In this document: positions 1,555 through 23,985 of the stretch, piece after piece
How positions within the stretch are numbered: position 1 is the first letter of the stretch
Layout of the letters: every line of letters starts with the position of its first letter
Source: Candidatus Levyibacteriota bacterium
GTDB lineage: Bacteria > Patescibacteriota > Microgenomatia > Levybacterales > UBA12049
Assembly (NCBI GenBank): GCA_963790825.1
Contig: CAWBPM010000002.1
Span: forward strand, 359,159 to 423,158
Length of the DNA stretch: 64,000 nucleotides
Direction of reading: 5' to 3'
The notes under the pieces: generated by a model
What the model saw: only the letters and a program-made list of their open reading frames with translations
What the model was told of the DNA's origin: nothing
Database searches by the model: none
Made by a program: the position numbers and the translations under genes

Positions 1555-1558
1555 ATTG

Positions 1559-3575: not shown

Positions 3576-3577
3576 AT

Positions 3578-5894: not shown

Positions 5895-5944
5895 AATGAA
5901 TTTAAATAATTCCCAGAAAACATACTATGGGTTTATTAACTAGT

Positions 5945-8900
5945 TCAAAAATATCTCTCCATTCTTTTTATATTTTCTTCATTAACAGTTACGGCGCTTA
6001 AGGAAAGTTCATGCTCAATCCCGGCAAAACTCTTTTCTATCAATTCATAGAAAGATTGTGCGCTTTTCTCCCAGGTAAACTGATAAGCCCACTTAATTGC
6101 TTCCTGAGAAAAATTCTTTCTCAGATTTTCATTAGTAATAAGTTCCAATATTTTGTTTGCAAATTCATCTGCGTCCCCGTAGGGAACGAGAAAACCGGTT
6201 GAGGGATTATTAATGGAATCTCTAAGTCCCGGCACATTTGATGCAACCGTCGGTGTCCCGCACGCATTTGCTTCAATGGTTGTAATACCCCAGCCTTCCA
6301 TAAAGGAAGGATTTACAAATACCCATGCTTTCTGGAAAAGTTTAATTTTCATATCTTCTTCTACTTTTCCGGTAAATAGAATTTTATTTTTCATACCGAG
6401 ATTCTCGGCGTATTTCTCAAGTTTTCTTCTCTCTTCTCCCTCTCCGGCAATAATAAATTCTACTTCGGGGATGCTCTCGGAAATTTTCTTGGCTGCTTTT
6501 ATCAAAATATGCAGACTTTTATAAGACTGAAGTCTTCCTAAATATAAAACAGACGGGATCATACTCTTTATTCCTGGTTTATACTTCCCGAGATCAACAC
6601 CGTTATAAACAATCATTGGCTCTTTTTTTGTCAGTTTATGTCTCAGTATCTCTTCTTTGGAAGACGGAGAAACAGTCACAACCTGAACACTTTTGTAAAC
6701 CAAAGGCATAAGTTTTGCTTCCAGGAATAACGCTAACCATGAGAATGGTGGTTTTAAGCTTTTTCTAAATACTTCCTGATGCACGTGGTGAATTAAGAGA
6801 AATTTAGGCTTAAATGAATATAAAGGCGAAAAAAATGGAATACCATTTTCAGAGTCGATGATAGCATCAAATTTTCCATGCAGTCGGAAAATATAATAGA
6901 GACATGCCCAAAGATAAACGGTATAAAATCCTCCACGCCTGATAATTTGTACACCGTCAATTATTTCATTTCTTGGTCCTTTTAAACTATTTCCGCAAAA
7001 GACAGTAACAGCATTGCCGTCTTTTACCCACCGTTTGGCAAGTTCCTGAATGTAGACTTCTGCTCCCCCTGCCCATTTATGCCGTGTGTCACGCCAATTT
7101 AAAATAAGTATTCGTAATTTATCTCTTTTAGTATATGTCTTTTTATATGTTTTAAATAAGCCAAAAAAATCGACCATATTGTTTTCAAATGTCTTTACCT
7201 GCACTGCAAAAAGATGAAGAGTTAATGTAATAGTCAGATAGAAAACCCAAATAAAACTCATAACGTAAACAAACGAGAAAACTGTTTGGTGGAAAAACGA
7301 GATAAGAACAATTTGCAAGACACCAATTAATAACGCTGCTCCGGCAAAACTATAATATCTCTTCGTTAAATAGTAATCACCATAAACTCGAGAGATGGTA
7401 AAGCATAACATCGCAAGAGACATCGGAAGAAGATAGGCAGTTGCGGCAATTGCTTTCTGTCCGAAAAGATAAGGAGCTGAGTAGTGACCTAAAATACCGA
7501 AAACCAAAACAGCCGGAAACGCTAATATAATAGCGCCGAGAATCGCTACCATAAGAATTTTTTTTGAATCTCTGTTGGTTCCCTCGTCTCTGCTTATCAA
7601 AGGAATAAGAAACGGAGAGACAAAAGAACCCATAAAAAATATTGTTTTCGCTACTAATGATATGAGTGAATATAATCCTGCTTCGTTTGGACTGAGATAA
7701 TGTTTTGCTAAAATTACATCAAGATTGAGAAGAATCACTGAGGATAAAGCTGCCATTGAGGAGTTAAGAAAGTATTTCTTGGGAAAATATTTTGCTTCTG
7801 CGTGTACTGTTTCTTTCGCATTTTTTCTACTTTTTACGATCATAATCCATCCTGCCAGAAAGGCGATAGAAACAGAAAAGGGTATGGCTGTATACGCCCA
7901 AGACTTAAGTCCCAGCAATACTAGTAGGAATGCAAAACCGAGCTTGAGAATAGGCTCGAATATGGCCAGAATGCCAAGGAGCACAAAGCTTAAACGTGAA
8001 GACAAAAATCCTCTATCTGTTGCATATGCGAATATTACTAAAAGAACAGGGGAGAATAGAAGAAATGGAAATAAACTTTCTGTTTTAAAGAAATGTAAAA
8101 GAGAAGGCGACAGTCCAACCCATAAAATAGTCAGGACTATGGAAATTAGCAATAATTTTCCTCTGGTAAATTTCCAGAAATCGAATGCTGTGTTGTTATT
8201 ATATTTTCCTATGAGGTAGCCGGTTTTATAACCAACTGTTGCACCAAACGCTCTTGGTATAACCGAGGTGAGAGAAAATAATCCAGTCATGAGACCGATT
8301 AAGCCAAAATCTTCCAGACTTAATACGCGACCTAAGTAAGCACTATACAAAAAATTGAATAAGTTACCGAGACCTAAAGCTCCCATGTAGAAGACACCCG
8401 CCAGGTAATTGCCGTGAAGCCTTATTTCTGTTTTAAACCGATTTTTAATTTTTGCAAAAAAAACTTTCCGGTTATTTGAGTCAATATAGATAATTTGTTC
8501 CATAATGACATCGGGTAAACTGTGTAATGATTTAAAACGAAGCCCATGAATTGTTTTCTCCCAATAGTGCGGTTTAAAAAGTAACTGATACAAAGCCATC
8601 CCGCTCGCAATGCTGATTAAAAGCCAGTAGAACGGGATTAAGAATGTGTATTTAATAAGTCCCCATTGTTTACGTTTGGCACATCCGATCATATAGCAAT
8701 AAAAAAACATAAAATTTCCAAAAACCAGCGAAAGTACAGCGAGGTACAATACGGGGGAGGGGTATAGAGATTGGATGAAGTGACCGGCAAAAGGGTAGAG
8801 AGTAAAATAGGCAATTGTTAATAGCCAAAGCAAGGGATTTAGCAAGATAAAGGCTAATTTCCCTCCAACTGTTAGTTGAAAAAACAAGACATGTATTCCT

Positions 8901-10678
8901 TTTTGACGGGCAAACCTAAAAGTATGACGCATATGAACCAGATAGGTTTGCATATAGCCTTTTATCCAGCGCGACCTTTGTCTCATCCAATTCGTCAGAT
9001 TACTATTTGCCTCTTCAAATGTTGTGGAATCGATAATCGCAGTCTTATACCCTTTTTTAAAAAGCCGTATACCCATGTCCGCATCCTCAGTGACGTTAAA
9101 TGCATCCCAACCCCTTAGCTTCTTCAGATCCTCTGTCCTAAAATGATTGCTGGTTCCGCCCAGCGGTAAACTGGTTTCAAGTGATTGTAACCCCGGAAGT
9201 GTTACGTCAAACCACAGCGAATACTCTGCGGTAAAGAAACGCGTGAGAAGATTTTGTTTAGGATTATAATAATTTAATTTTGCCTGCAGGCAAACAATGT
9301 CCCGCGGACATTTTTGAAAAGCCAAATAGGCTTTTTTTAACTGCATTGGATCCGGAGAATCTTCGGCGTCGTAAATAACCAGATACTCTCCCAAAGCTTC
9401 TGATAAACCGAAGTTACAAGCTTTCGGTTTTGTTTTCGGCATCGAATAAGGAACAACGACGACTCGAACGTAAGACGGAAGTATCATTGTTTCTACCTTT
9501 TCTATAGATTCTCTGTCATCTTCTTCCAGTAAAAGCAGTACGTCTAATTTGTCTTTCGGCCACTGCAATAGCTCTATAGCACGAAGAAATTGAGGAATAA
9601 CCTGCGCTTCTTTATAGAGCGGACAAAGAATAGAGTAAATAGGAAGAGTATCGTCATTGAGGCTATTAATTTCTTTCGTGTCAACTGAAATTTCTTTATC
9701 AAAAGTCAGACTTTTGCTTACAATAAAGAAATTAAATAGTGCATCGACCAAATAAACCAGACTTAAAATGGCAATTATTATTTTTAAAGTAGTAAGAAAT
9801 TCGAAGAACAAACCAAACAGGAAAAGAGTAAGGACAGCGAAGATAAATATCTTCTGTTTTAGCTGCAGCGTATAGATCGCGGAATCATCAAAATCTAACG
9901 TAGTATGGGTAATATACTTTCTTTTTTTATAACCCATTCCTGCACCTTTCATGGAAGAAGAAGTTGTGGGAGGAATTTGTTGGGGATATAATTTTCTTAA
10001 CCTGATATATAAAGCACTAAGCAGTATCTTGCTTATGCTAGCCAAAGAAGAAACAGGTGAGTTTATTGAAAAATTCAAAGGGAAAGCAATTTCATAATTA
10101 GTGATAATAAACCCTGCCTGTTTCGCCCGGTAAAAAAATTCCAGGTTAAATGTTTGGTCGGACAGAGGATTAAACTTAAGAGTATCGAGGACCTCTCTTG
10201 AGAATATTTTTATTCCTGATTCTGTGTTTATATCTATGCCAAAAAGTGTTTTACCAAGCAGAGAGGTAAGAGTACCCGCAAATGTTCTTTTAGGGTTATT
10301 TTTTTGTTCTTTTTTCGCTGAGGCAACGATTATATCCGCCTTGTCTAACTTTTTAATCATCTCCGGAATTGCCGCAAGCGGGTAGCGTAAATCCGGGTCT
10401 ATTAGAATAACTGCGGAACCGGCCGTATTTTTAAACCCCTCAAGCACATAACCTGCCTTACCTTTTAATCCCGTGTTTCTATAAACTGAAAAATTTTTGT
10501 TTTTCTGCATTTCTTGTAATAGCTGAAGCGAGTCGTCTATCGAATAGTCATCAATAAAAATAATTTCGTAGGGGTAATTTGTAGCCGTAAATGCTTTTTC
10601 AATACCACTTATGATTTCCCCAAGCAAATTTTGCTTATTATATATAGGTATAATTATACTGATCAATCTATCTCTCAT
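5945..10678 (-). CDS. 1577-aa four-module fusion: Dpm1/GtrB-like GT2, TM segment, processive GT2 (QxxRW), Wzx-like flippase, GT4
   Basis: 1) aa 1-225: IISIIIPIYNKQNLL ... IFIDDYSIDDS, polyprenyl-phosphate sugar synthase-like GT2. 2) TM helices. 3) aa ~340-600: KTKPKACNFG ... VIYDAEDSPD ... QRSRWIKGY, a CESA/PgaC/NodC-like processive GT2. 4) aa ~735-1150: multi-TM Wzx-like module (YLGRVLSLEDFGLIGLM). 5) aa ~1160-1577: GT4 (ILNWRDTRHKWAGGAEVY ... EGWGITTIEANACGTPTVAS). It is one uninterrupted ORF. Confidence 0.8.
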   Translation of the reverse strand: MRDRLISIIIPIYNKQNLLGEIISGIEKAFTATNYPYEIIFIDDYSIDDSLQLLQEMQKNKNFSVYRNTGLKGKAGYVLEGFKNTAGSAVILIDPDLRYPLAAIPEMIKKLDKADIIVASAKKEQKNNPKRTFAGTLTSLLGKTLFGIDINTESGIKIFSREVLDTLKFNPLSDQTFNLEFFYRAKQAGFIITNYEIAFPLNFSINSPVSSLASISKILLSALYIRLRKLYPQQIPPTTSSSMKGAGMGYKKRKYITHTTLDFDDSAIYTLQLKQKIFIFAVLTLFLFGLFFEFLTTLKIIIAILSLVYLVDALFNFFIVSKSLTFDKEISVDTKEINSLNDDTLPIYSILCPLYKEAQVIPQFLRAIELLQWPKDKLDVLLLLEEDDRESIEKVETMILPSYVRVVVVPYSMPKTKPKACNFGLSEALGEYLVIYDAEDSPDPMQLKKAYLAFQKCPRDIVCLQAKLNYYNPKQNLLTRFFTAEYSLWFDVTLPGLQSLETSLPLGGTSNHFRTEDLKKLRGWDAFNVTEDADMGIRLFKKGYKTAIIDSTTFEEANSNLTNWMRQRSRWIKGYMQTYLVHMRHTFRFARQKGIHVLFFQLTVGGKLAFILLNPLLWLLTIAYFTLYPFAGHFIQSLYPSPVLYLAVLSLVFGNFMFFYCYMIGCAKRKQWGLIKYTFLIPFYWLLISIASGMALYQLLFKPHYWEKTIHGLRFKSLHSLPDVIMEQIIYIDSNNRKVFFAKIKNRFKTEIRLHGNYLAGVFYMGALGLGNLFNFLYSAYLGRVLSLEDFGLIGLMTGLFSLTSVIPRAFGATVGYKTGYLIGKYNNNTAFDFWKFTRGKLLLISIVLTILWVGLSPSLLHFFKTESLFPFLLFSPVLLVIFAYATDRGFLSSRLSFVLLGILAIFEPILKLGFAFLLVLLGLKSWAYTAIPFSVSIAFLAGWIMIVKSRKNAKETVHAEAKYFPKKYFLNSSMAALSSVILLNLDVILAKHYLSPNEAGLYSLISLVAKTIFFMGSFVSPFLIPLISRDEGTNRDSKKILMVAILGAIILAFPAVLVFGILGHYSAPYLFGQKAIAATAYLLPMSLAMLCFTISRVYGDYYLTKRYYSFAGAALLIGVLQIVLISFFHQTVFSFVYVMSFIWVFYLTITLTLHLFAVQVKTFENNMVDFFGLFKTYKKTYTKRDKLRILILNWRDTRHKWAGGAEVYIQELAKRWVKDGNAVTVFCGNSLKGPRNEIIDGVQIIRRGGFYTVYLWACLYYIFRLHGKFDAIIDSENGIPFFSPLYSFKPKFLLIHHVHQEVFRKSLKPPFSWLALFLEAKLMPLVYKSVQVVTVSPSSKEEILRHKLTKKEPMIVYNGVDLGKYKPGIKSMIPSVLYLGRLQSYKSLHILIKAAKKISESIPEVEFIIAGEGEERRKLEKYAENLGMKNKILFTGKVEEDMKIKLFQKAWVFVNPSFMEGWGITTIEANACGTPTVASNVPGLRDSINNPSTGFLVPYGDADEFANKILELITNENLRKNFSQEAIKWAYQFTWEKSAQSFYELIEKSFAGIEHELSLSAVTVNEENIKRMERYF

Positions 10679-10684
10679 AGTTTT

Positions 10685-10885
10685 TTATTTTTCTATCTTA
10701 TTTACAACACGATGATCATTAATGAATTTATATAATGCCGGTTTTTCAATGCGGTAATGCCCTCCGAATTCCAGTGCTTCAATTTTTCCTTCTTTAATAT
10801 ACTTATAGATTGTCAGGATACTTAGCTTCAGAATTGAGGCTACTTCCCGGACTGTTAGTAATAAATTTTCTTCTGTTTGTCTCAT
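10685..10885 (-). CDS. Excisionase-family HTH DNA-binding protein (HTH_17-like)
   Basis: LLTVREVASILKLSILTIYKYIKEGKIEALEFGGHYRIEKPAL matches the excisionase/MerR-type winged HTH consensus. Its stop is 6 nt from the start of the 1577-aa gene, so the two are co-transcribed. Confidence 0.7.
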   Translation of the reverse strand: MRQTEENLLLTVREVASILKLSILTIYKYIKEGKIEALEFGGHYRIEKPALYKFINDHRVVNKIEK

Positions 10886-11115
10886 AGTCGAATATCTAAG
10901 TTGTTATATATATCACAATATAGCTATATAGTCAATCTAATTGTAACTTTTACTATATTTTAAATACATTTGTTTATGTCCGATAATGTTTATATATTCT
11001 TAATAATACTGATTCGTTGCATAGTACAATAAGAAAGACTATAAGAACATAATTAAACTAACAGTTAAGTTGTTAAAATAAGTAAATAATACTTAAGAAC
11101 GGATAAAATCACTTC

Positions 11116-11144
11116 TTGACAATCCGGATAAAATAAAGTATAAA
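11116..11144 (+). promoter_or_regulatory. Sigma70-type promoter (TTGACA-17-TATAAA) upstream of the 738-aa GT gene
   Basis: cTTGACAatccggataaaataaagTATAAAc. It would give a 5' leader of about 220 nt. Confidence 0.5.
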
Positions 11145-11184
11145 CTTAGACTCTAGGTTATTATTTTGTCCAATGGTAAATTTT

Positions 11185-11201
11185 TTGATTAATTTAATCA
11201 A
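11185..11201. promoter_or_regulatory. Perfect 8-1-8 palindrome TTGATTAATTTAATCAA in the divergent intergenic region (candidate operator)
   Basis: Read directly from the sequence. It lies between the promoter above and the start of the 738-aa gene, and is divergent from the HTH gene. Confidence 0.4.
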
Positions 11202-11371
11202 ATTGAAATTTCATCGATACATGTAAAATGCCGATTTAGCAAGACAGGTGAATTAAGAGGCTTATTGCTTTTTGTTGTGAATTAAGTTACTGAGTAAATA
11301 AGAATCATTTACATATAGCCTATTGTGCTAAATTTATTGTATATAGTAGAGTTATATAAGATTTATTTAAT

Positions 11372-13588
11372 ATGAAGAAATTATCAATTGTTATACCAAC
11401 CTGGAACGAGGAAGGAAATATCCTACCTATTGTTCTACGGATTGATGCTGCAATGAAACGCATTAATACAATGTATGAACTGATTTTTGTGGACGATAAT
11501 TCCACTGATAATACACAAACTGCAATAAAAGACCTGAGTCGTTCTTACCCGATCTCTCTTTGGATAAAAAAAGGGAGGAAGGGGAAGGCGTTTTCTCTAC
11601 TTGAAGGTTTTTCCTACGCAAAATATAACTTTCTCTGCATGATAGATGCGGATTTGCAATATCCGCCTGAAGCTATTCCTGCAATGCTTAAGAAAATCGG
11701 AAGAAAAAATGATATCATAGTCGCGAATAGGAATGAAAAGAATATTAATCTCATCAGAAAACTTTTCAGTCATTCTTTTCGTCTTATTTTCGGAAGACTT
11801 ATCCATACCTTCGATTGCGATGTTCAATCCGGACTGAAAGTATTTAAAAAAGAAATCATAGAGCGAATTGATATAAACCCGACTTCCTGGACGTTCGATT
11901 TGGCACTACTGACAAAAGCCAGAAATGCCGGATACAGTATTGGTACTGTCGATATTATGTTTGATAAGCGGTTTTCCGGGAAAGCCAAAATCGGGCTGTT
12001 GAAAGCATCACTCGAGATAGGATTAAATGCGCTATTTTTAAAATTTGCTAAAAACGAAATTATTCCCTTTAGTCTCGCGACAAAAAAAAGAAAAGGGGAT
12101 GGGTTTCATTATAAAGGAAAGCCGTTCGTTCCGCATACTGACCTACCCATGAAACGAAGCGCAATTCAAAGGTTGACCTTGGGACAAATCCTCATTCTCT
12201 CTGCACTTTTGTGTTTCTTCATTATTGCTTTATTTCTAAACTGGCATCTGGTTTTGCTTCTTCTTATCTCGCTGGTAAGTTTCCTTTATTTTAGCGATCT
12301 TTTATTTAATTTTTTTCTGATTTATAGAAGTTTTTCAAAAACTCCCGAAATAAAAATAACTAAAAAAGCGATTCAAAAAATACCTGATAGTTTCTGGCCG
12401 ATATATACTGTTTTTTGTCCGTTATATAAAGAATGGTCCGTTGTCCCGCAATTTATCAAGGCCATGAGTGATCTGGATTACCCGAAAGAAAAGTTACAGG
12501 TAATGCTTCTTTTGGAAGAAGATGATAAAGAAACAATTGAAAAAGTAAAAGAGTTCAGCCTGCCGTTTTATTTCCAGGTTGTTATTATTCCCGATGCAAA
12601 GCCAAAAACCAAACCAAAAGCCATGAATTTCGGCATGAAATTTGCAAAAGGGGAGTTTATCGTTATTTATGATGCTGAAGATATACCGGAAAAAGATCAA
12701 TTAAAAAAGGCTGTTCTGGCTTTCCAGGAAGTAGGATTAAAAACTGTTTGCCTGCAGGCAAAATTAAATTTTTATAATCCCCATCAAAATCTTTTAACAC
12801 GTATTTTTACAGCCGAATACTCCCTATGGTTTGATTTGGTACTTACCGGTCTTCAATCAATTAATGCGCCGATTCCACTGGGCGGTACTTCTAATCACTT
12901 TCGGGCCGGAGTTCTGGAAAAAATAAAGGGTTGGGATGCGTTCAATGTAACGGAAGATGCGGACCTCGGTATGCGACTGGTTAAAGAAGGATATAGAACG
13001 GGTATTATAGATTCGACTACGTATGAAGAGGCAAACAGTGATTATATAAATTGGTTCAATCAACGAACACGCTGGGTCAAAGGTTACATCCAAACTTACT
13101 TTGTTCACATGAGAAATCTCAGGGAGTTTAAAATGTCTCTCAGAAACCCCGATGCGATTACGTTTCAACTTGTTATCGGGGGGAAAATTTTATCCATGTT
13201 TATAAATCCGTTCATGTGGACGGTGACTATTAGTTATTTCGTCTTTCGCCCGATTATCGGTACATTTATCGATTCTTTCTTTCCCGGTCCCTTATTGTAT
13301 ATTGCTATGTTCTCGTTAATTTTCGGAAACTTTCTTTATTACTATTATTATGTGATCGGCTGTGCAAAAAGGAATTATTATGACATTATCAAATATCTCT
13401 TCCTGATTCCTTTCTATTGGTTGGCAATGAGTGTGGCAGCCTGGATAGCAACTTATAAATTTATTCACGAACCGTATTATTGGTCAAAAACAGTCCATGG
13501 CTTACATCTTCAGGATAGCAACAGTTTCGCTAAAAAGAAAGTGCCCCTTTTCCGCTTGAGTTTTCTACCTATTTTTGATAAAGAGTAA
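11372..13588 (+). CDS. 738-aa dual GT2 protein (Dpm1-like GT2, TM segment, processive QxxRW GT2, TM segment)
   Basis: LSIVIPTWNEEGNI ... FVDDNSTDNT, then KTKPKAMNFG ... VIYDAEDIPE ... QRTRWVKGY. It is a close paralogue of aa 1-720 of the 1577-aa protein. Confidence 0.8.
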   Translation: MKKLSIVIPTWNEEGNILPIVLRIDAAMKRINTMYELIFVDDNSTDNTQTAIKDLSRSYPISLWIKKGRKGKAFSLLEGFSYAKYNFLCMIDADLQYPPEAIPAMLKKIGRKNDIIVANRNEKNINLIRKLFSHSFRLIFGRLIHTFDCDVQSGLKVFKKEIIERIDINPTSWTFDLALLTKARNAGYSIGTVDIMFDKRFSGKAKIGLLKASLEIGLNALFLKFAKNEIIPFSLATKKRKGDGFHYKGKPFVPHTDLPMKRSAIQRLTLGQILILSALLCFFIIALFLNWHLVLLLLISLVSFLYFSDLLFNFFLIYRSFSKTPEIKITKKAIQKIPDSFWPIYTVFCPLYKEWSVVPQFIKAMSDLDYPKEKLQVMLLLEEDDKETIEKVKEFSLPFYFQVVIIPDAKPKTKPKAMNFGMKFAKGEFIVIYDAEDIPEKDQLKKAVLAFQEVGLKTVCLQAKLNFYNPHQNLLTRIFTAEYSLWFDLVLTGLQSINAPIPLGGTSNHFRAGVLEKIKGWDAFNVTEDADLGMRLVKEGYRTGIIDSTTYEEANSDYINWFNQRTRWVKGYIQTYFVHMRNLREFKMSLRNPDAITFQLVIGGKILSMFINPFMWTVTISYFVFRPIIGTFIDSFFPGPLLYIAMFSLIFGNFLYYYYYVIGCAKRNYYDIIKYLFLIPFYWLAMSVAAWIATYKFIHEPYYWSKTVHGLHLQDSNSFAKKKVPLFRLSFLPIFDKE

Positions 13589-13653
13589 TGTTTTGAGAAA
13601 GGTTACCCGGCTTTAATAAGTGGGGTGGAGAAAAATAAAGTATTACGGCGCAC

Positions 13654-13683
13654 AAAAAAAGCGGGCTATAGCCCGCTTTCTCT
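13654..13683. terminator. Bidirectional rho-independent terminator between convergent genes
   Basis: AAAAAAAGCGGGC-TATA-GCCCGCTTTCTCT. It has a 6-bp GC stem and is flanked by A-run and T-run. Confidence 0.75.
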
Positions 13684-14836
13684 ACAAGCTATACCTATGA
13701 TTAGGCGACCTTCCAGATCGCAGTCTTATCCACATCCGCATAAATAACATAACGATATTTGCTAAAATGGCAAAAAAGAGCCAATTTGTTTCTGTTGCAG
13801 GTAGTATTCTGCTCATCCCGAGCACCAATACCTGTCCTCCCGACGGGAAGGTGGAAGAATTACTGCCCAAGCTATTTATAATTGGCGCAGCACTGAATGG
13901 CGGGGGTAATGCCCCGGGAGTCTCTGATTTTGGGGACGCAGCCGGAAGAGAAGATTGCTGGGTACATTGACAGTCTCCATCAAAGACATTCGTATTAAGA
14001 GGGTTATTACTAATTTGAGAATAGGACGCAATATTACCGGTTTGTATTTCAACATTTCCTGTGTTTCCGCTCGCAGTATTAGACCCTGAGGAGAGACTGA
14101 GTGTTTCGTTATTACTCGCATTTGTAACTTGTATTGTCTTAAGCATATTTATATTGTTGTTTTCTTCGTCAACAGTATTTTTTGAATCATCACCGTTTCC
14201 GCTGCTGTCTACAACTGAACCTTCCGATCCTTCAATATCTTTGCCCGCACTTATCGTTGCAAGCGGTTCGTTTAGTAATCTTATTTTGACATTGATATCT
14301 CCTGTTTGAATCGTAGTATTGCCGGAATTATCATTCGCGCTATTCTCTCCGGTTATCGCCGTCCCCGAAATATTATTCTGGATCGTTGTTATTTGCTTTA
14401 CCACCGTATTAACCTTTGTTGAATTATCCTGGACAATCGTATTCTGAGAACCGGATCCATTCTGATCGTTCGTTGACAAGGTAGTTCCCGAGCAGCATGA
14501 AGGCGCTTTTGCGACGGAATTATTAGTATTATTTATTATTGTTGTGTTTGAGATCGTATCTCCCGTACTGATTACAACTGAACCGTTCGTATTACTGTTG
14601 GCAGTATTATTGCCGGAGGAGGAAGTTGTCTCAATGGTATTGGAAATTGTTGCTGTATTTGCCTGCTGTACACTAGTCTGAGTAGGAGAGTAGACAGATA
14701 CTCCGTTCCCAGAATCGGAACCGTTTCCTAAAACAGTTAAATCTTCCGCATTTACGGATTTTACAAAAACAGCAAAAAAAAGACAGTAGATTAAGGTTGT
14801 TGCTAACGTGATTATAAAAATTTTATATTTTAACAT
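13682..14836 (-). CDS. Secreted Asn/Thr/Ser-rich repeat protein with C-terminal sorting-signal-like anchor
   Basis: N-terminal signal peptide (MLKYKIFIITLATTLIYCLFFAVFVKSVNA). Repeat modules include GNTTIQTGDINV and GNTGNVEIQTGNIA, with CC/CxC pairs. The C-terminus LPATETN + WLFFAILANIVMLF + RMWIRLRSGR fits motif, hydrophobic helix, basic tail. Confidence 0.6.
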   Translation of the reverse strand: MLKYKIFIITLATTLIYCLFFAVFVKSVNAEDLTVLGNGSDSGNGVSVYSPTQTSVQQANTATISNTIETTSSSGNNTANSNTNGSVVISTGDTISNTTIINNTNNSVAKAPSCCSGTTLSTNDQNGSGSQNTIVQDNSTKVNTVVKQITTIQNNISGTAITGENSANDNSGNTTIQTGDINVKIRLLNEPLATISAGKDIEGSEGSVVDSSGNGDDSKNTVDEENNNINMLKTIQVTNASNNETLSLSSGSNTASGNTGNVEIQTGNIASYSQISNNPLNTNVFDGDCQCTQQSSLPAASPKSETPGALPPPFSAAPIINSLGSNSSTFPSGGQVLVLGMSRILPATETNWLFFAILANIVMLFMRMWIRLRSGRSPNHRYSL

Positions 14837-14895
14837 ACAATAATTATGTAGATGTAGCTCACAAACTTACTATGTAATCGAGGCAGAAATTACTA

Positions 14896-17187
14896 TTATT
14901 TACTTCGGGGCAATAGAATTCTTTTACCGAGTATTCCAAGTCCCAAGATCGGTAGAAGAAGTATAAACCAAGCAAGATTAACCGATATTTGCTTCTCGGT
15001 TTCAAGAGTAGGTGTATGCGCGCTTAAAACAGTGGTTGTATGATTCGGCGTTACTTTGCTTGAGTTTACAAAATTACTGTTATAGGTAAGAATACTGCCA
15101 CTGGGCACATTGGTATCCGCGTTTATTGTAATCTGATCAACTGTTCCTGAATTCGTAGTCGTCGCAGTGGAGCTTGTAGTCTGATTAGTAGTTGACCCCG
15201 AAGAAGAGGTGTTACTGGAACTCGTTGTACTTGTTGAAGTTGTGCTACTGGCTGTTTGTGAGGCGTTTCCACTATTTTGATCATGCTTCACTTGGCCCGG
15301 TGTCACAAAATCTCCAACCCATTTACCAAAAACATTTACCACTGTCACTATTAATTTACCGTTACCCACGACATTGTTATTAACAAAGTTAACCAGGTTG
15401 GCGATAATGTTGGCATTGCCTGTTTTAATAGCTGTATTACCATCTGTATTTTCATTCGCCTGATTTCCTCCGGTATTGGCACTAAGGTTTAGATTATTTG
15501 TAATGTTCGCGTTATTATTCTGGGTCGTTGAAGAATTATTGTTCTGCGTACTGCTGGCATTACTGGTTGACCCACTACCATTGCCTGAATTATTTACTGC
15601 TGTTACATTACCGCTACTATCTACGCTAAACTCTGTCCCTGACGATCCGGACATTGTAGAACCGGCAGGAGCTCCTAATATCTCACCCACCCACGTACCC
15701 GCATCATTAACCAGGACTAGCCACCATGTGCCGCCATCAACATTGGAATTGGCAACATTGAGAACATTAGCATCGACGTTTGTACTACCCGTGGATACCG
15801 CGGAATCTCCGCCTGTATTTAGATTCGCATCGTTGTTTCCGGTCTGACCGTTAAATGTCAGATTATTGCTAATTGCCGCATCATTATTTTGAAAAGTATT
15901 GTTACTATTTCCTTGTGATAAGGACGCATCATTTGTGCTTCCCGATCCGTTTCCGGAATTGGTTGAATCCGCACTGCTGTTTGCTACTTCACTATCAGGA
16001 AGAACAATATCACCATTCAAGTCGCCGTAAATATTGACAACACCATACTCGACTTGTCCGCCTGATAAATTATTATTGGCGAGGGTGAGAGAATTGGCGG
16101 AAACATTTGCATTACCTGTTTGAATAGCCGTGTCTCCACCCGTATTGTCATTTGCTGTGTTTTGCCCGGAATTTGCCGAAAGAGTTAGGGTATTTCCGAC
16201 TGTCGCGTCATTATTCTGGAACGAATTATTATTATTTGCCCCTGATAAACTGGCATTATTAGTCGAATTCGCACCGTTACCAGTATTTGCCACTGTTCCA
16301 CTGCTGCCGGAACAGCCCGAAACACAATTCGCAGCGTAGTTTAAGACCAGATCTCCCGTTTGATCATCTGCGACGTCGAATTCCGACACCTCAACATTAT
16401 CAAGGTTTGTATTTACGCCTGTTATTGCAGTCCCTGAGGTATTTGCATCCCCTGTTTTCATTAATGTATTGCCTCCGGTATTGTCAGATGCTGTATTAGT
16501 GCCGGTATTTGTTGACTGATTAACATTATTTCCCACCTGGGCACTATTGTTTTGGTTGCTGTTATCGTTATCTGAGACAGTAGCAGAACCGTTATTATTT
16601 GATCCCGATCCATTACCGCTGTTTGAGACTTGCGCACTCGAACCTGTGCCACTATTCGTTGTTGCACCTGAACCATTGCCGCTATCATTTGTTACCGAAG
16701 CCGAGTCTACTCCGGCTCCTGCACTTACAGCACTACTATCACCGGAATTCTGTCCGGAACCTGCAGGCGTATTGTTTGGGCTTACCGTAGGAGTAGGGGT
16801 AGGAGTCATATTAACTCCGACTGCAGTGGCACTTGTCGCACTAACCGTCCTATTACTGTCTCCTCCCTCCAAGGGAACTTTCGCATCCGGTGTTGGCGTA
16901 ACTCTTGGATCATGATGATTAGTCTTCTCACTATCAGGTGATACTGACGGAGTAGGGGTAGGAGTATCTGTAGGTGTTGCATTTGCAGAATTCGGCGCTT
17001 GAGGTGCAGTCGGCGATGGGGTTGGGGTAGTAGTGTCTACCGGTTGATCCGGTGCAGTCGGTGCAGTCGGCGATGGAGGCGGCGGTGTAGACGTCGGATC
17101 ATCCGCACGAGCAAGAATAGGATTTTGCACAAAAATAAGCCCCAGGATCAGAATAATGGTTAATAGTTTTTTAAATTTTAATTTCAT
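14896..17187 (-). CDS. 763-aa secreted Pro/Thr-linker plus Asn/Gly/Ser/Thr-rich repeat protein with C-terminal TM anchor
   Basis: Signal peptide MKLKFKKLLTIILILGLIFVQNPILARA. A PT-rich linker (TPPPPSPTAPTAP) follows. It has four or more modules with the core NTGG(D/N)(T/S)A(I/V)xTGxANV, each ending in an aromatic beta-strand-like segment. The C-terminus is PTLETEKQ + WFILLLPILGLGILG + KRILLPRSK. Confidence 0.65.
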   Translation of the reverse strand: MKLKFKKLLTIILILGLIFVQNPILARADDPTSTPPPPSPTAPTAPDQPVDTTTPTPSPTAPQAPNSANATPTDTPTPTPSVSPDSEKTNHHDPRVTPTPDAKVPLEGGDSNRTVSATSATAVGVNMTPTPTPTVSPNNTPAGSGQNSGDSSAVSAGAGVDSASVTNDSGNGSGATTNSGTGSSAQVSNSGNGSGSNNNGSATVSDNDNSNQNNSAQVGNNVNQSTNTGTNTASDNTGGNTLMKTGDANTSGTAITGVNTNLDNVEVSEFDVADDQTGDLVLNYAANCVSGCSGSSGTVANTGNGANSTNNASLSGANNNNSFQNNDATVGNTLTLSANSGQNTANDNTGGDTAIQTGNANVSANSLTLANNNLSGGQVEYGVVNIYGDLNGDIVLPDSEVANSSADSTNSGNGSGSTNDASLSQGNSNNTFQNNDAAISNNLTFNGQTGNNDANLNTGGDSAVSTGSTNVDANVLNVANSNVDGGTWWLVLVNDAGTWVGEILGAPAGSTMSGSSGTEFSVDSSGNVTAVNNSGNGSGSTSNASSTQNNNSSTTQNNNANITNNLNLSANTGGNQANENTDGNTAIKTGNANIIANLVNFVNNNVVGNGKLIVTVVNVFGKWVGDFVTPGQVKHDQNSGNASQTASSTTSTSTTSSSNTSSSGSTTNQTTSSTATTTNSGTVDQITINADTNVPSGSILTYNSNFVNSSKVTPNHTTTVLSAHTPTLETEKQISVNLAWFILLLPILGLGILGKRILLPRSK

Positions 17188-17278
17188 ATTTTTTATTTAT
17201 TTTATATTTTTAATTTTCTTTTATTTGGTGTAGGGTGTCTATCCGAAGTGCTAGACAGACACCACTACATACCAAATG

Positions 17279-18526
17279 TTATAACCAGTTAAGTGACTGA
17301 AAAACACCACTCAAGTTCCAATCGAAACTGACTTGTTGTCCGTTTGGTAGAGTGAAGTCTGCAATCGGTCCGTAAACGTTTTCGTTTGCGGCACTGCTTA
17401 CTGATGTTTCGGAATCAGCTGGACCTGCGAGAATATCATTTGGATCCGTTCCCAAGCCCCACAAGAAAGTACTTCCTGTGTTTAAGCTGGCATCATTGTG
17501 TCCAGATTTTACATCCGTAGTTACTGGATTTGACAAATCTGCAATTCCGGTTTGAAAAACAGAACTATCATTCCCTAAATCTGCTGTTAAGCCGTTTCGT
17601 GAATAAGCTCCGTTTCCATCAACTAATCCGTCTACAGTCGCATCGCATCCGCATCCGGTAGATGCCGCATTGAAGTTTGCTTCATTTGAGACATCGACCC
17701 CTGCTTTTGCTAACTGGGTTTCAATACCCGTATCTCCGCCAGTATTTTCATTGGCTGTATTATAGCCGGATTTTGCTTTCGCATTGACATCATTAACGAT
17801 AGTTGCCAGGTTGTCTTGTTCGACAACTGCTGAATTATCGTTTGTTAATTTGACGTCATTCTTACTGTAAGCACCATTCCCTAAAATTTTTAAGGATGAT
17901 GGATCAGTACTTCCGGTTCCGTTCCCTCCAACTTGCGCAACGTTCTCGTTCGCAGCATTATTGATGGTTACATTTGTTTCTGCAGGACCGGTGACAATAC
18001 CGGTATCTCCTCCAGTATTCAAACTTGCATCATTTTTTCCAGAATTTGTATCTGCGTTAACAGTATTAGTGATATTTGCAGTATTAGTCTGGAATAAACC
18101 CGTTGTATTGCTGTTATCGACAACTGCGTTATTGTGAGAGTCGGCGCCGTTACTGCCAATTTTTACATCGGTTGTACTATCGCAATTGCAATTACTTACA
18201 TCTGCAACATTTTTATTTACCTGAGTCGAGAGATTAACATTAGATGTTGCTGCTCCCGTCTGGATAAATGTATCACCGCCTGTATTTAGACTGGCCGTAT
18301 TCCCGCCGCTGGAAGCGTCTGTTTTTACAGTATTTGTAACAGTTGCCGTGTTCGTTTGTTCAACTGTGTTTGTCTGCGTCCCTGTTACTTTAACATCGTT
18401 ACTAGAAGATGCTCCGTTGCCGGTAACTGTAAGGGTTGTATCCGCAAACGCTAAAGGTGCTAAAGCATTGAGTAAGACTGCTCCGGTTGCTATAGCTGTT
18501 GTTAAATTTTTTGAAAATTTTGTCAT
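17279..18526 (-). CDS. 415-aa secreted repeat protein (four modules of roughly 90 aa, NTGGDT core, CxC ends)
   Basis: Signal peptide MTKFSKNLTTAIATGAVLLNALAPLAFA. Modules have the form L-V-GNGA ... SG-N-AS-NTGGDT-I-TG-A ... NV ... C-x-CD (CNCD, CGCD). Confidence 0.65.
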   Translation of the reverse strand: MTKFSKNLTTAIATGAVLLNALAPLAFADTTLTVTGNGASSSNDVKVTGTQTNTVEQTNTATVTNTVKTDASSGGNTASLNTGGDTFIQTGAATSNVNLSTQVNKNVADVSNCNCDSTTDVKIGSNGADSHNNAVVDNSNTTGLFQTNTANITNTVNADTNSGKNDASLNTGGDTGIVTGPAETNVTINNAANENVAQVGGNGTGSTDPSSLKILGNGAYSKNDVKLTNDNSAVVEQDNLATIVNDVNAKAKSGYNTANENTGGDTGIETQLAKAGVDVSNEANFNAASTGCGCDATVDGLVDGNGAYSRNGLTADLGNDSSVFQTGIADLSNPVTTDVKSGHNDASLNTGSTFLWGLGTDPNDILAGPADSETSVSSAANENVYGPIADFTLPNGQQVSFDWNLSGVFQSLNWL

Positions 18527-18621
18527 AGATTAATTTCACCCCCTTTCCTTGACATATAGTCTCTTAGAATCTCTAAGAGCACTTCTTTTCCGTTATATTT
18601 GCCTAAGACCTGATCCCCAGA

Positions 18622-18682
18622 CAAAAAAACGGAAGCTTCTCAATTTAAATGCCTGATTTAAATCGGGACGTTTCCGTTTTTA
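18622..18682 (-). terminator. Terminator-like hairpin after the 64-aa/DUF4352 operon
   Basis: On the minus strand: AAAAACGGAAACG ... inner ATTTAAAT hairpin ... CTTCCGTTTTTTTG. Confidence 0.45.
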
Positions 18683-18904
18683 AAGTTTTCGTACCTTTTA
18701 GTCTAATGATAAATTCTTTCTTCATTTATAATCTGAAATAAACTTACTAACAATAAATTTTGCAATAAAAAAAGCACCTTTACGTGAGACTTTTCACATA
18801 AAGATGCTTCCGATTGCGGCCAGCAATATTTATTATTTTACTTTTCTAAATTTTTATTAAAATTTATAAGAACATAATTAATATAGACCAGTAAAATATT
18901 CTTG

Positions 18905-19099
18905 TCAAGAGCCAATTTTAGCATTGTGCCCGTTTGGCAATCCATTCTCAGTTTTTTTAATGTTTCTTTCGGTTATTTGTACTACTTTAAAATCCTGAAC
19001 AAAAATTTCTACACTGCCCCATCCGCGGATATTTTTTAACGCTTCAATAACTTCTTCGAGAAGCTTTTCGCTAATATGTTTTGTCGAATAATCCGGCAT
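18905..19099 (-). CDS. Small DUF2292/YezD-like protein
   Basis: 64 aa. The GWGSVEIFVQDFKVVQITE core resembles the YezD family. Confidence 0.4.
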   Translation of the reverse strand: MPDYSTKHISEKLLEEVIEALKNIRGWGSVEIFVQDFKVVQITERNIKKTENGLPNGHNAKIGS

Positions 19100-19108
19100 A
19101 AATTAAAA

Positions 19109-19699
19109 TTATTTTAGATTAAGTTTTATTATACTTTTGTTTCCTTTTATTTCACCGACTTGAAGGATCAGATTTTTATCTGTTGTATTAATAGGAAATC
19201 CGAGGCGGGTATATTTGGTAGAAATTGCCTGAATTTCAACCGGATCATTATTAATATCGGCTGCCATTTTTTCATTTGAATTATTAACCATTAATCTAAT
19301 ATAATCCTTGGCATTAATTTGCACATCTTTTTCATAATTGTTGGTAATTTTAATATTTACAACTAAGAATGACCTTCCTTGAATTGATGTTGCTTTTACA
19401 CCCGTTACAATAATCTGATTTGTCTTCTGTACATTAATTAGTGTATAGCTAATTGTACTGACTTGGTGTCCGGCACTATCTTTCAGCGCAAACTGGTAAG
19501 TTTTATTTAACGTCTCCGCGGCTAAGGGTTGCTCTAATTGAACTTGTTGATTTCCGCTGGTTGCTCCGGCCGAGCCGGTTCCGCTACGAAACAGCAGAAT
19601 GGTAATTATTAAAATAAGCAGAATGATAATTGCTGCGGAGAGATAGTGCCAGTTTTTTAAATAAGGTATTATTTTTCTCATAAAAAAGCCCTGTAACAC
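19109..19699 (-). CDS. Membrane-anchored DUF4352-like protein
   Basis: N-terminal TM helix, then a beta-rich extracytoplasmic domain. It is probably in an operon with the 64-aa gene. Confidence 0.4.
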   Translation of the reverse strand: MLQGFFMRKIIPYLKNWHYLSAAIIILLILIITILLFRSGTGSAGATSGNQQVQLEQPLAAETLNKTYQFALKDSAGHQVSTISYTLINVQKTNQIIVTGVKATSIQGRSFLVVNIKITNNYEKDVQINAKDYIRLMVNNSNEKMAADINNDPVEIQAISTKYTRLGFPINTTDKNLILQVGEIKGNKSIIKLNLK

Positions 19700-19743
19700 A
19701 GGGCAGTTATTGTCAGCATACTATCAAAACGCTTGCTTTCTTG

Positions 19744-20337
19744 TCAAGAGGTATTCTCTTTGTTTGAAGTAGTTTCCTTAGTTTCATCCTGTTTATCTTT
19801 CAAAATACTTCGTATGTCTACACTGCCTGATTCAATTTGATGCTGAAGAGTTCTTTCGATATAAGACGTGTCTATTCGCTCAAGCATCCCCGTAAGTTCA
19901 GGATCTTCCTTTTTTATTCCAACCTTTTCCCTAATCTCCGCAAGCACTTCAAGCGTTTTAGTTATTTCTTCCTCCGTCAAAAGCCCTACCTGCAGATGCA
20001 GTTCGTCCCTGAGACTTTGAATTTCTGTTTGCCGATTCTGACTGAGAAGAACAAAAATAGAAATCGTGATTGCTTCAACAGATACAAGCGCGGTTAATAA
20101 GAAAAACGGGTAGGGGTCAAAGGGACGAACATTGGGAAGGATATTGCTATTAAGTAGAATCCAGAGGAAAAACAAATAAAGATTAAGTATAAGAAAAGAG
20201 ATGCTTCCGAATGTTTCGGTAATAAAATCAGATAATTTTTCGCTTGACGTTCTCTGTGCTCTCGCTTTCGCTTCAAAGGACTTGAAAAATCTTTTTCTTC
20301 TTACTATTTTCTCGTGGTGGGCATTACCGTTTTTCAT
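19744..20337 (-). CDS. DUF1003 family membrane protein
   Basis: The FDPYPFFLLTALVSVEAITISIFVLLSQNRQ motif is characteristic of DUF1003. Confidence 0.6.
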   Translation of the reverse strand: MKNGNAHHEKIVRRKRFFKSFEAKARAQRTSSEKLSDFITETFGSISFLILNLYLFFLWILLNSNILPNVRPFDPYPFFLLTALVSVEAITISIFVLLSQNRQTEIQSLRDELHLQVGLLTEEEITKTLEVLAEIREKVGIKKEDPELTGMLERIDTSYIERTLQHQIESGSVDIRSILKDKQDETKETTSNKENTS

Positions 20338-22806: not shown

Positions 22807-23985
22807 TTAACTACTGATTTCAATTAGAGGTAGCTGTTGGCGATTCTTATCCTGCAAAATTACCGTTTTATATAGCTTCTCAAGCCCGTCTACGGTCGCA
22901 TCGATAGAAAACAATTCTGCTTTTTTATGAGCTTCCAGAGAAAGCTGCATCATTTCCTGGCTATTATACAAAAGGTTAATGATCGCTCTGCTAAACTCTT
23001 TTTGATTATTTCGAACCAAGATACCGTTTTTTCCATTTTCTATAATTCCCTCAAACGCAAGGTCTTTTCGAGCAATAATCGGAAGAGATGAAGCCATTGC
23101 TTCAAGTATTACCATTCCTTGTGTCTCTGTTCGAGAAGCAAAAAGAAAAAGCGCTGCGTCCGCATAAACAAGGGCAATAAACTTCTGCTCGATTGAACCG
23201 GTAAAGTATATTCTTTGTTCTACCAATAACGATCTGGCGAGATCTTGTAATTTTTCACGCTCCGGACCGTCCCCTACGATGACAAGGACCGTGTCGGGTC
23301 GTTTTTGCGACACAAGCGCAAATGAACGGATTAAAAAATCGACCGATTTCTCTTTTCCCAATCTTCCTACATACAGAAGGATTTTATCCGTACTTTTCAG
23401 TTTCAACCTTTTTCTTAAAAAACCTTTTTTTACATTTTGGAATTTCTCCAGATCAAGTCCGTTCGGAATAACCGCGATTGGTTTCTGAACGCCGTAAGAA
23501 ATAAGTTCATCTTTTACTTTCATAGTAGGTGCTATCAGAGAATCGGACATATTGCAGAAAACCCGGCTTGCTACTTCAGTCATTTTTGGCGGAATTAATT
23601 TACCATTGAGAAAGTAGTGTGTGTATTTATTCCACAATGTATGGTAAGTACAGACGAAAGGTACTTTTTTTAGAAGCGCGACTTCCCAGCCAAGAAAAGT
23701 AACCGGTCCCCCCGAATGACCATGGATAATATCAAAATCGATTTTTGATAACTGAATAAGCGATTTGCCGGGCAAATACATAGCCAGCCGCAGCTCCGGC
23801 TGCTTCGGTACTTTTACCGAAGTAAGACGGAATACATTTTTTTTATCCTTAAATCCCGGATAAGACGGCGCGATGATATAAACAGTATGCCCTCTGGCTT
23901 CCAGCTCCCTGGCACATGTATCAACAGATATGGCAACCCCATCAATGCGCGGTAAATAGCTGTCCGTGAAAAATCCGATTTTCAT
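22807..23985 (-). CDS. GT4 glycosyltransferase
   Basis: MKIGFFTDSYLPRIDGVAISV at the N-terminus, and a C-terminal GT-B domain (ETQGMVILEAMASSLPIIA). Confidence 0.8.
   Translation of the reverse strand: MKIGFFTDSYLPRIDGVAISVDTCARELEARGHTVYIIAPSYPGFKDKKNVFRLTSVKVPKQPELRLAMYLPGKSLIQLSKIDFDIIHGHSGGPVTFLGWEVALLKKVPFVCTYHTLWNKYTHYFLNGKLIPPKMTEVASRVFCNMSDSLIAPTMKVKDELISYGVQKPIAVIPNGLDLEKFQNVKKGFLRKRLKLKSTDKILLYVGRLGKEKSVDFLIRSFALVSQKRPDTVLVIVGDGPEREKLQDLARSLLVEQRIYFTGSIEQKFIALVYADAALFLFASRTETQGMVILEAMASSLPIIARKDLAFEGIIENGKNGILVRNNQKEFSRAIINLLYNSQEMMQLSLEAHKKAELFSIDATVDGLEKLYKTVILQDKNRQQLPLIEISS

Follow-up and report, generated by a model that had tools for sequence, protein, structure and literature searches.

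What do three neighbouring genes for secreted proteins build at the cell surface, when their products share a repeat that belongs to no named domain family? The question is raised by a 64,000-nucleotide stretch of DNA from Candidatus Levyibacteriota bacterium (GenBank assembly GCA_963790825.1, contig CAWBPM010000002.1, positions 359,159 to 423,158), hereafter the window, in which a first-pass annotation had pointed out three tandem minus-strand open reading frames (ORFs) of 384, 763 and 415 aa, here called A384, B763 and C415. We find that these proteins carry an undescribed domain family within a Gram-positive-style anchoring scheme, and propose that the gene cassette encoding them is the protein-building part of a conserved cell-envelope system in Microgenomates-type bacteria of the Candidate Phyla Radiation (CPR, or Patescibacteria). 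Microgenomates-type bacteria are monoderm and very small. The CPR represents a large share of bacterial diversity of which almost nothing is cultured, and its cell surface, the interface with hosts, is made of proteins that are essentially uncharacterised. From the module family come tangible candidates for the envelope layer that microscopy has shown, together with a domain new to structural work and a natural set of CPR sortase substrates, and a shared leader RNA marks genes for secreted structural proteins.

Three exported paralogs share an 89-residue module without a named family

The three ORFs are present and conserved, as the first-pass annotation had described them. The minus strand is indeed the coding strand: the other strand offers short, nested ORFs of 81-123 aa, whereas full-length homologs of the minus-strand proteins number in the hundreds. 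Each protein begins with a putative Sec signal peptide, in which a basic n-region and a hydrophobic core precede an AxA-type site, and the cleavage sites were read by inspection and hydropathy as falling between LAFA and D, ARA and D, and VNA and E. All three proteins are thus predicted to be exported to the cell surface.

We analyzed the repeat with a hidden Markov model (HMM) of 89 positions, trained solely on the four modules of each of 44 C415 orthologs. Four modules were detected in C415, four in B763 and three in A384, so that the repeat holds but the count is 11 and not the roughly 12 proposed before. Outside the training family, independent E-values (i-E) ranged from 1e-12 to 1e-17 for B763 and are given in Table 1 for A384; no further ORF of the window matched the model. 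Whole proteins scored 308.6 bits (C415), 132.0 bits (B763) and 100.9 bits (A384), and the top scores among 300 residue shuffles per protein were -26, -66 and -4 bits, respectively. Since shuffled sequences score -4 bits or less, the Asn/Thr/Gly-rich composition is ruled out as the source of the matches. These results confirm the proposed module of about 90 aa common to the three proteins, and the peptides quoted in its favour were all found in the sequence.

When the 11 window modules are aligned, the invariant or near-invariant columns are GNG, S, N, N, G-N-A, N-T-G and T-G. The NTGGDT core described at first is more variable than it appeared: a strict NTGGD is found in 5 of the 11 modules, but the other six carry the variants NTGGN, NTDGN, NTGST, NTNGS, NSGNT and NTGNV. 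The paired cysteines are likewise a feature of some modules only. They close five of them (CNC and CGC in C415, CC and CQC in A384, CVSGC in B763), whereas the remaining B763 module ends bear aromatic hairpin-like inserts, e.g., GVVNIYGDLNGDIVLP, TWWLVLVNDAGTWVGEILGAP and LIVTVVNVFGKWVGDFVTPG. Asn and Gly are invariant at dozens of positions of the C415 alignment, and the module pattern, with sparse alternating hydrophobic positions and many invariant Asn/Gly, would fit beta strands linked by tight turns.

No family was found at E≤0.1 in Pfam or NCBIfam for C415, B763 or A384. Pfam searches with 44 homologs gave no recurrent family (the best, DUF4140, matched three members at E=0.002, under its cut-off), and PDB sequence searches, run up to E=10 with single sequences as well as with two profiles, gave no relative of the module proteins. 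A profile of the 11 window modules was searched against 1.84 billion representative proteins (50% identity clusters); 2817 clusters matched at E≤1e-3, of which 655 also did so at E≤1e-30, with architectures of 2 to 10 modules. The earlier statement that the repeat fits no named domain family is supported by the Pfam, NCBIfam and PDB searches. Literature searches on sortases and S-layers of the CPR or Microgenomates also found no description of the module family or of the cassette.

Structure prediction, which had been suggested as a check, was carried out with AlphaFold2. It returned low-confidence all-beta models with long strands for the whole of C415 (44 sequences, predicted local distance difference test (pLDDT) 51) and for its modules 1-2 (120 sequences, pLDDT 56). 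The module common to the three proteins is predicted to be all-beta on this basis, but the models are too uncertain for fold assignment. Using Foldseek against the PDB, we observed no significant fold match; the top one was the amyloid protein FapC (E=0.027, TM-score 0.13), and ice-binding beta-helices were among the other non-significant matches. No shorter repeat was detected inside the 89-residue module (all hhalign probabilities <10%).

The cassette is conserved across Microgenomates-type bacteria

We compared the window with 82 related loci (L001-L082), of which 74 are not cut off after the C415 ortholog, and scanned one genome per species with a 7-sequence alignment as query. The cassette order was first seen in two long contigs, where the module proteins have about 413, 790 and 397 aa: a transmembrane protein, a DUF2292 protein, a four-module secreted protein, a four-module transmembrane-anchored protein, a three-module LPxTG protein and a sortase. 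The B763 ortholog directly follows the C415 ortholog in 74/74 loci that are not cut off, and the three-module third gene is present in 47 loci. A sortase adjoins this third gene in all 47 of them; since none of the related loci carries it without a sortase, the window copy, with no sortase found in the 64 kb, is atypical.

The C415 family has at least 360 homologs, nearly all full-length, of 400-430 aa and with 40-51% identity, and exactly four modules were counted in 115/120 of them. At least 460 homologs of 700-815 aa were found for B763, and most of the 65 A384 homologs measure 357-439 aa. Each paralog constitutes a separate conserved orthologous family. C415 and A384 share 48% and 38% identity, respectively, with their L001 orthologs, and the B763 core 60%, compared to about 30-35% between paralogs. 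Members of all three families are annotated as hypothetical, save for a few evidently automatic names. Many matches stem from samples of the Hainich and Rifle type.

The cassette family was found in 131 species-representative genomes. Where genome names are informative, they are those of Levy-, Gottesman-, Woese-, Ames-, Davies-, Chisholm-, Roizman- and Shapirobacteria, i.e., Microgenomates, with one 'Doudnabacteria'. The named proteins with unusual module arrangements likewise come from the CPR, including one 'Parcubacteria group' protein with nine modules. Many cassette-bearing metagenome-assembled genomes (L010, L012-L017 and others) are titled 'uncultured Gammaproteobacteria bacterium', which is most likely a placeholder from bulk submission. 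Overall, the recurrence of the cassette, usually with a sortase, across Microgenomates-type bacteria makes it a strong candidate for a cell-surface coat or fibre. The coordinates of all features are presented in Table 1.

Table 1. Features of the cassette region, in positions of the window and listed in the direction of the minus strand.
Feature	Position	Strand	Basis and remarks
Single-transmembrane protein, 196 aa	19109-19699	-	N-terminal transmembrane segment and extracellular domain; first cassette gene; orthologs directly upstream in 81/82 loci
DUF2292 small ORF, 64 aa	18905-19099	-	Pfam DUF2292 E=1.2e-7, passes family cut-off
Sigma-70-like putative promoter, TTGACA-17-TATATT	18880-18908	-	Consensus scan, 11/12 matches; overlaps DUF2292 stop codon
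Long structured 5' leader of C415 gene, 346 nt	18527-18872	-	RNA fold -85.4 kcal/mol, z -5.07, 0/100 shuffles as good
Leader motif GCTGGCCGCAATCGGAAGC with terminator-like hairpin	18770-18824	-	Motif scan and fold; motif (18806-18824) overlaps 5' end of 18-pair hairpin with U-run (18811-18770)
End GCTTCCGTTTTTTT of second terminator-like hairpin	18623-18636	-	Within C415 leader
GAAGTGC box	18579-18585	-	Within C415 leader
Strong Shine-Dalgarno sequence AAGGAAAGGGGGTG	18537-18550	-	Within C415 leader
C415, 415 aa	17279-18526	-	ORF and HMM; signal peptide, four modules, conserved C-terminal tail
C415 signal peptide, residues 1-28	18443-18526	-	Sequence and hydropathy, site by inspection only; ends LAFA before D; conserved in ortholog alignment
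C415 module 1, residues 30-117	18176-18439	-	HMM i-E 2.3e-28; ends C113-N-C115 (18182-18190)
C415 module 2, residues 119-203	17918-18172	-	HMM i-E 4.1e-26; Gly-rich linker follows
C415 module 3, residues 211-295	17642-17896	-	HMM i-E 3.6e-30; ends C292-G-C294 (17645-17653)
C415 module 4, residues 301-386	17369-17626	-	HMM i-E 4.7e-23; degenerate core NTGSTF
C415 C-terminal tail PIADFTLPNGQQVSFDWNLSGVFQSLNWL	17282-17368	-	Ortholog alignment and hydropathy; family consensus LPxG...F.FDL..L
B763, 763 aa	14896-17187	-	ORF, HMM, hydropathy; signal peptide 17104-17187
B763 Pro/Thr-rich N-terminal region	16630-17103	-	Layout from sequence
B763 module 1, residues 187-267	16387-16629	-	HMM i-E 1.2e-12; insert after it with CVSGC (16312-16326)
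B763 module 2, residues 301-376	16060-16287	-	HMM i-E 1.9e-15; insert after it GQVEYGVVNIYGDLNGDIVLP (15958-16059)
B763 module 3, residues 411-483	15739-15957	-	HMM i-E 1.3e-17; insert after it GGTWWLVLVNDAGTWVGEILGAP (15598-15738)
B763 module 4, residues 531-610	15358-15597	-	HMM i-E 1.1e-14; insert after it KLIVTVVNVFGKWVGDFVTPGQ (15238-15357)
B763 Ser/Thr-rich stalk	14980-15237	-	Layout from sequence
B763 NLAW, transmembrane segment and basic tail	14899-14979	-	Sequence and hydropathy
A384, 384 aa	13682-14836	-	ORF and HMM; signal peptide 14747-14836
A384 module 1	14489-14740	-	HMM i-E 2.7e-19; ends CC
A384 module 2	14270-14464	-	HMM i-E 6.4e-10
A384 module 3	13958-14203	-	HMM i-E 2.5e-10; ends CQC
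A384 Pro/Ser-rich linker	13805-13957	-	Layout from sequence
A384 sorting signal	13685-13804	-	Sequence; LPATE (13790-13804), hydrophobic segment, basic tail RLRSGRSPNHRYSL
Sortase position of relatives, here a 93-nt spacer	13589-13681	.	Precedes 3' end of convergent glycosyltransferase gene
Double GT2 glycosyltransferase with transmembrane segments, 738 aa	11372-13588	+	Convergent; Glycos_transf_2 E=6e-38, Glyco_tranf_2_3 E=5.5e-28; context only

The third gene and its sortase differ between clades. In eight loci of Gottesman-, Woese- and Amesbacteria (L008, L011, L012, L018, L021, L030, L036, L039), the third gene encodes a Gly-rich one-module protein of about 195 aa that ends in an L[SA]A[TA][SA]G-like motif and a transmembrane segment, and a different sortase lies alongside in 6/8. 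Four loci (L043, L050, L052, L064) have a three-module protein ending in GLSDTS and a transmembrane segment, together with another divergent sortase. Convergent two-module paralogs of about 200 aa, with one CxC pair each, lie 0.5-2 kb past the sortase in about 29 loci (L001 15685-17112, minus strand); the module HMM found no such paralog in the window. In L001, genes for HemolysinCabind, LTD and Peptidase_M73 (TasA/camelysin family) proteins, which are also secreted and of a structural type, adjoin the cassette (17219-20251, minus strand).

The paralogs differ in their predicted attachment to the cell

The first-pass annotation had placed the signal peptides and anchors on the minus strand; a C-terminal anchor was found in only two of the three proteins, B763 and A384. 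From their C-termini, the paralogs appear to differ in attachment, with C415 free, B763 in the membrane and A384 of wall type or in the membrane. All of the module proteins are acidic, with isoelectric points (pI) of 4.05-4.7.

The signal peptide is the sole hydrophobic segment of C415 (pI 4.05), and its tail shows neither a transmembrane segment nor a basic stretch by hydropathy. When compared by eye, this tail is akin to the aromatic inserts of B763 (NIYGDLNGDIVLP vs. NVYGPIADFTLP). Cysteines C113, C292 and C294 are invariant in the ortholog alignment, and C115 is conserved in at least 90% of the sequences. C415 would thus be a free, unanchored subunit. The B763 orthologs, which have no LPxTG, end in an (I)NLAW-like motif, a transmembrane segment and a basic tail in 72/74 cases.

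A384 starts with a Sec-type signal peptide, MLKYKIFIITLATTLIYCLFFAVFVKSVNA, followed by ED after the cleavage site (inspection and hydropathy), and ends with a sorting-type signal in which the motif precedes a hydrophobic segment, TNWLFFAILANIVMLFMRMWI, and a positively charged tail, RLRSGRSPNHRYSL. Its motif has Glu for Gly at the fifth position (LPATE). This LPxTE form, and the loss of Gly at that position, is found in the window protein alone among about 50 family members, about 45 of which carry LP[AVISDE]TG, a transmembrane segment and LRLRSG(R/N)SP; a strict LPxTG is present in 37 of the 47 locus orthologs. In the relatives, LPxTG and the neighbouring sortase imply covalent attachment of the A384 orthologs to peptidoglycan. 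The cassette sortases pass the cut-offs of Pfam Sortase and of the generic TIGR01076 and none of the class-specific ones (A-F): the main type is nearest to class C or D, with 62-70 bits vs. cut-offs of 140-165, and the alternative type (L008) is nearest to class E.

No sortase was found in the window, either by tblastn or with an HMM built from 48 cassette sortases (best score 11 bits, inside another gene). Compared to LPXTG substrates, the window A384 has the signal peptide and the hydrophobic and basic tail but lacks the motif itself and a sortase within the window. Since it reads LPATE and no sortase occurs in the 64 kb, the wall-anchoring leg has here either been lost or relies on a sortase encoded elsewhere. 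Unless such a sortase accepts LPATE, the window A384 probably stays membrane-anchored through its C-terminal helix.

Taken together, the signal peptides, the transmembrane anchor and the LPxTG-type signal agree with the earlier idea of a surface-repeat family as far as cell-surface location is concerned; with no fold assignable, the product may be an S-layer, an adhesin or a sheath, as it had offered.

A structured leader RNA precedes the C415 gene

The intergenic region upstream of C415 holds a near-consensus putative promoter of the sigma-70 type and a long structured leader (Table 1). By reading, many of the related loci were seen to have a similar TTGACA box at the same position with respect to the leader motif. 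The motif itself has one match in the window vs. 0 in 100 shuffles. Its 19-nt consensus, GCTGACCGCAAACGGAGGC, lies upstream of the C415 ortholog in 67/82 loci, about 120-340 nt before the matched coding region, and a second copy precedes the two-module paralog in five loci. Aligned over 45 sequences, the hairpin comprises 22 pairs, with compensatory changes at 12 of them. Of its cells, 93.2% are paired, compared to 78.8% in shuffles (none of 500 reached this value) and no more than 54.7% after sliding of the partners. The base of the stem (AACGGAGG/CCUCCGUU) is invariant, with a Shine-Dalgarno-like GGAGG sequestered in it. No Rfam family matched the leader RNA, and a literature search for the motif string was also empty.

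In metagenome contigs (L084-L203), we counted 121 exact occurrences of the motif, 88 of which lie before a module protein, with a median distance of 164 nt from motif to start codon. For the 33 others, 16 have too little DNA or no ORF and 17 precede other ORFs, many of them with signal-peptide-like N-termini and including small two-repeat CxxC proteins, TasA/camelysin-like proteins and a subtilase. The leader RNA looks like an attenuator or stabiliser common to genes for secreted structural proteins. That it could be read by the DUF2292 protein encoded upstream is speculation.

The DUF2292 ORF begins 9 nt past the end of the gene for the transmembrane protein, and its orthologs were detected by tblastn in most related loci; an additional weak, sub-threshold match was OscA-like. 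The 196-aa transmembrane protein gave sub-threshold matches only (PepSY_TM-like, E=0.009; DUF4352 for the L001 ortholog, E=0.025), and no PDB relative of it was found.

A proposed structural surface polymer and its alternatives

We tentatively favour, at slightly less than even chances, a co-assembly in which the anchored paralogs hold the free one in a structural surface polymer, either a coat or a fibre. B763, held in the cytoplasmic membrane by its C-terminal transmembrane helix and displayed on long Pro/Ser/Thr stalks, and A384 would act as anchors or nucleators at the level of the membrane and of the wall, respectively. The free four-module C415 would assemble on these tethered paralogs via homotypic module-module contacts, giving a structural surface polymer in the form of a sheet (S-layer or sheath) or a fibre, and the conserved Cys pairs at the module ends may form disulfides that lock or cross-link the subunits. 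MdbA-like oxidoreductases are reported to be enriched in the CPR (PMC6744442). Sortase is reportedly near-ubiquitous in Microgenomates, and 35 families enriched in this group are described as mostly hypothetical and often membrane-associated or extracellular (Méheust et al., PMC6744442).

Several points weigh against this co-assembly. Both the third gene and the sortase are absent in 14 loci, and wall anchoring is therefore dispensable there; in the window, the wall-anchoring leg is defective or relocated. Pfam recognised no wall-binding domain in C415. In addition, a conservation of 40-50% across whole orders exceeds what is expected for a typical S-layer protein. A more specific version of the favoured reading is possible but doubtful: the three proteins would form the main coat (S-layer or sheath) with a new beta fold, cross-linked through vicinal cysteines, tethered to membrane and peptidoglycan, and co-regulated with two-module and TasA-like proteins by the terminator-type leader RNA, itself undescribed so far and perhaps read by DUF2292.

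The proteins might instead be independent adhesins that fix the episymbiotic cell to a host, mineral or polysaccharide surface, as Gram-positive LPxTG adhesins do, and that do not co-assemble. Their architecture, with signal peptide, stalk and LPxTG or transmembrane anchor, is that of surface display, flat Asn/Thr-rich beta surfaces are typical of carbohydrate- and ice-binding proteins (the latter among the non-significant fold matches), and CPR-enriched surface families are generally proposed to serve inter-organism interactions (PMC6744442, PMC7143001). Yet adhesins usually evolve rapidly and differ in how many repeats they carry, whereas 115/120 C415 homologs keep four modules in about 410 aa with dozens of invariant Asn/Gly positions, and the order of the gene trio is kept across orders. 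Moreover, an unanchored paralog makes little sense as a cell adhesin unless it is bound to the anchored ones. The fixed architecture and strong conservation favour a structural role over a variable adhesin, and we consider the adhesin reading unlikely. An extracellular fibre of the functional-amyloid type (chaplins, curli, Fap, TasA), nucleated by the anchored paralogs, in place of a two-dimensional coat, is improbable to a similar extent. It would account for the pairing of anchored and free paralogs and for the predicted all-beta, Asn/Gly/Thr-rich character; the top Foldseek match, although non-significant, is FapC, and TasA/camelysin-like genes also follow the leader motif, with a Peptidase_M73 gene near the L001 cassette. 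Against it, the profile comparison with CsgA was negative (probability 0.07%), the module shows no short internal repeat that could form solenoid rungs (all hhalign probabilities <10%), Pfam gave no chaplin, curli or TasA match, and no structural match was significant. Least probable of all, and quite unlikely, the modules would be ion- or glycan-binding units, e.g., for Ca2+ at the TGxNDAxxNTGGD loop, that condition or bind wall polysaccharide from the neighbouring glycosyltransferases. This Asp/Asn/Gly-rich loop is conserved, a glycosyltransferase cluster adjoins the cassette, and a double GT2 gene is near it in five loci; but Pfam gave no HemolysinCabind or lectin match, there is a single GGD per 89 residues with no tandem nonapeptides, and the association with glycosyltransferases is limited to few loci.

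The co-assembly of anchored and free paralogs has its closest working analogies in the Streptomyces chaplins and in CsgB/CsgA of curli, although the domain is unrelated. The long chaplins ChpA-C are sortase-anchored, the short ChpD-H are secreted, and conserved Cys pairs are present. By analogy, the cassette paralogs share one domain in anchored and free forms with conserved Cys pairs, and one clade has an LAxTG-like signal and a sortase nearest to class E. In contrast to chaplins, with which the module proteins have no sequence relationship and no Pfam match, the module is longer and hydrophilic (89 residues, grand average of hydropathy -0.2 to -0.5, vs. about 40 residues and hydrophobic for the chaplin domain), and the cassette has an additional membrane-tethered paralog. 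Curli CsgA/CsgB and Fap resemble the module proteins in being all-beta and Asn/Gln/Gly-rich, and a surface-bound paralog would be a plausible nucleator of the secreted one, as with CsgB. However, the module lacks the 19-23-residue sub-repeat of curli, the structural match to FapC is non-significant, and outer-membrane secretion partners are not expected in a monoderm. Curli proteins have tandem repeats of some 20 residues, S-x5-Q-x-G-x-G-N-x-A-x3-Q, and membership of their family was rejected on the hhalign comparison of the module alignment with E. coli CsgA.

Compared to the LPXTG wall proteins of monoderms, the A384 orthologs are ordinary substrates in all but the passenger domain: they combine signal peptide, wall-spanning Pro/Ser-rich linker, LPxTG, hydrophobic segment, basic tail and an adjoining sortase (47/47). 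The passenger is the unnamed module, with no Ig, Cna or MSCRAMM fold by Pfam, and the window protein differs further by its LPATE and by the lack of a sortase within 64 kb. In SpaA-type sortase pili, every pilin subunit carries LPXTG and the domains are CnaA/CnaB Ig-like; such pili are excluded, since the C415 and B763 families have no LPxTG and Pfam finds no Cna domain in any of the three proteins. An RTX beta-roll was also rejected, as tandem GGxGxDxUx nonapeptides and a HemolysinCabind match are both absent.

S-layers have been observed on some CPR cells (PMC13293708), and predictions for Patescibacteria have yielded candidate S-layer proteins (bioRxiv 10.1101/2024.05.28.596244). C415 is like an S-layer protein in being acidic, secreted, of about 40 kDa and poor in Cys, and its gene is preceded by a strong promoter-like site and by a long, structured 5' leader in which the Shine-Dalgarno sequence is strong as well. 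It differs from S-layer proteins in that Pfam found no SLH, CWB2 or other known anchoring domain, and its sequence and length are unusually conserved across orders. The archaeal SH proteins are secreted beta-rich subunits of a resistant extracellular layer with inter-unit disulfides, with a core of two six-stranded antiparallel sheets (PMC11576556). The likeness to those of Methanothrix and Methanospirillum is by description only (secreted, beta-rich, disulfides proposed, multiple paralogs per genome), whereas the cassette is bacterial and uses another anchoring system.

Glycosyltransferase genes and glycosylation

A cluster of glycosyltransferase genes (781-13588) adjoins the cassette in the window. 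Besides a PIG-L deacetylase and enzymes of the GT4 and GT2 families, it encodes a GT2-GT2-GT4 fusion of 1577 aa (5945-10678) and the double GT2 enzyme. A homolog of the latter lies within 7 kb of the cassette in 5/82 loci (L001, L009, L019, L063, L076). The module proteins had been proposed as glycoprotein substrates from this neighbourhood and their composition. The adjacent cluster is indeed there, but N-x-S/T sequons occur at or below the composition expectation in the three proteins (13 observed vs. 12.2 expected, 33 vs. 31.4 and 8 vs. 13.0), and because they are not enriched, the glycoprotein idea gains no support from them. The Ser/Thr/Pro stalks, judging from their composition, could be O-glycosylated.

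Further glycosyltransferase genes are present at 22807-23985 and 28386-31028, and the set of the window includes an 880-aa fusion of GT2 and GH26. Finally, a 1076-aa ORF without a Pfam match (54451-57681, plus strand) has one transmembrane-like segment and long Thr/Pro-rich, mucin-like repeats (TPTPTDTLTPTATKTATRTAT and similar), and coincides with the strongest GC and AT skew of the window.

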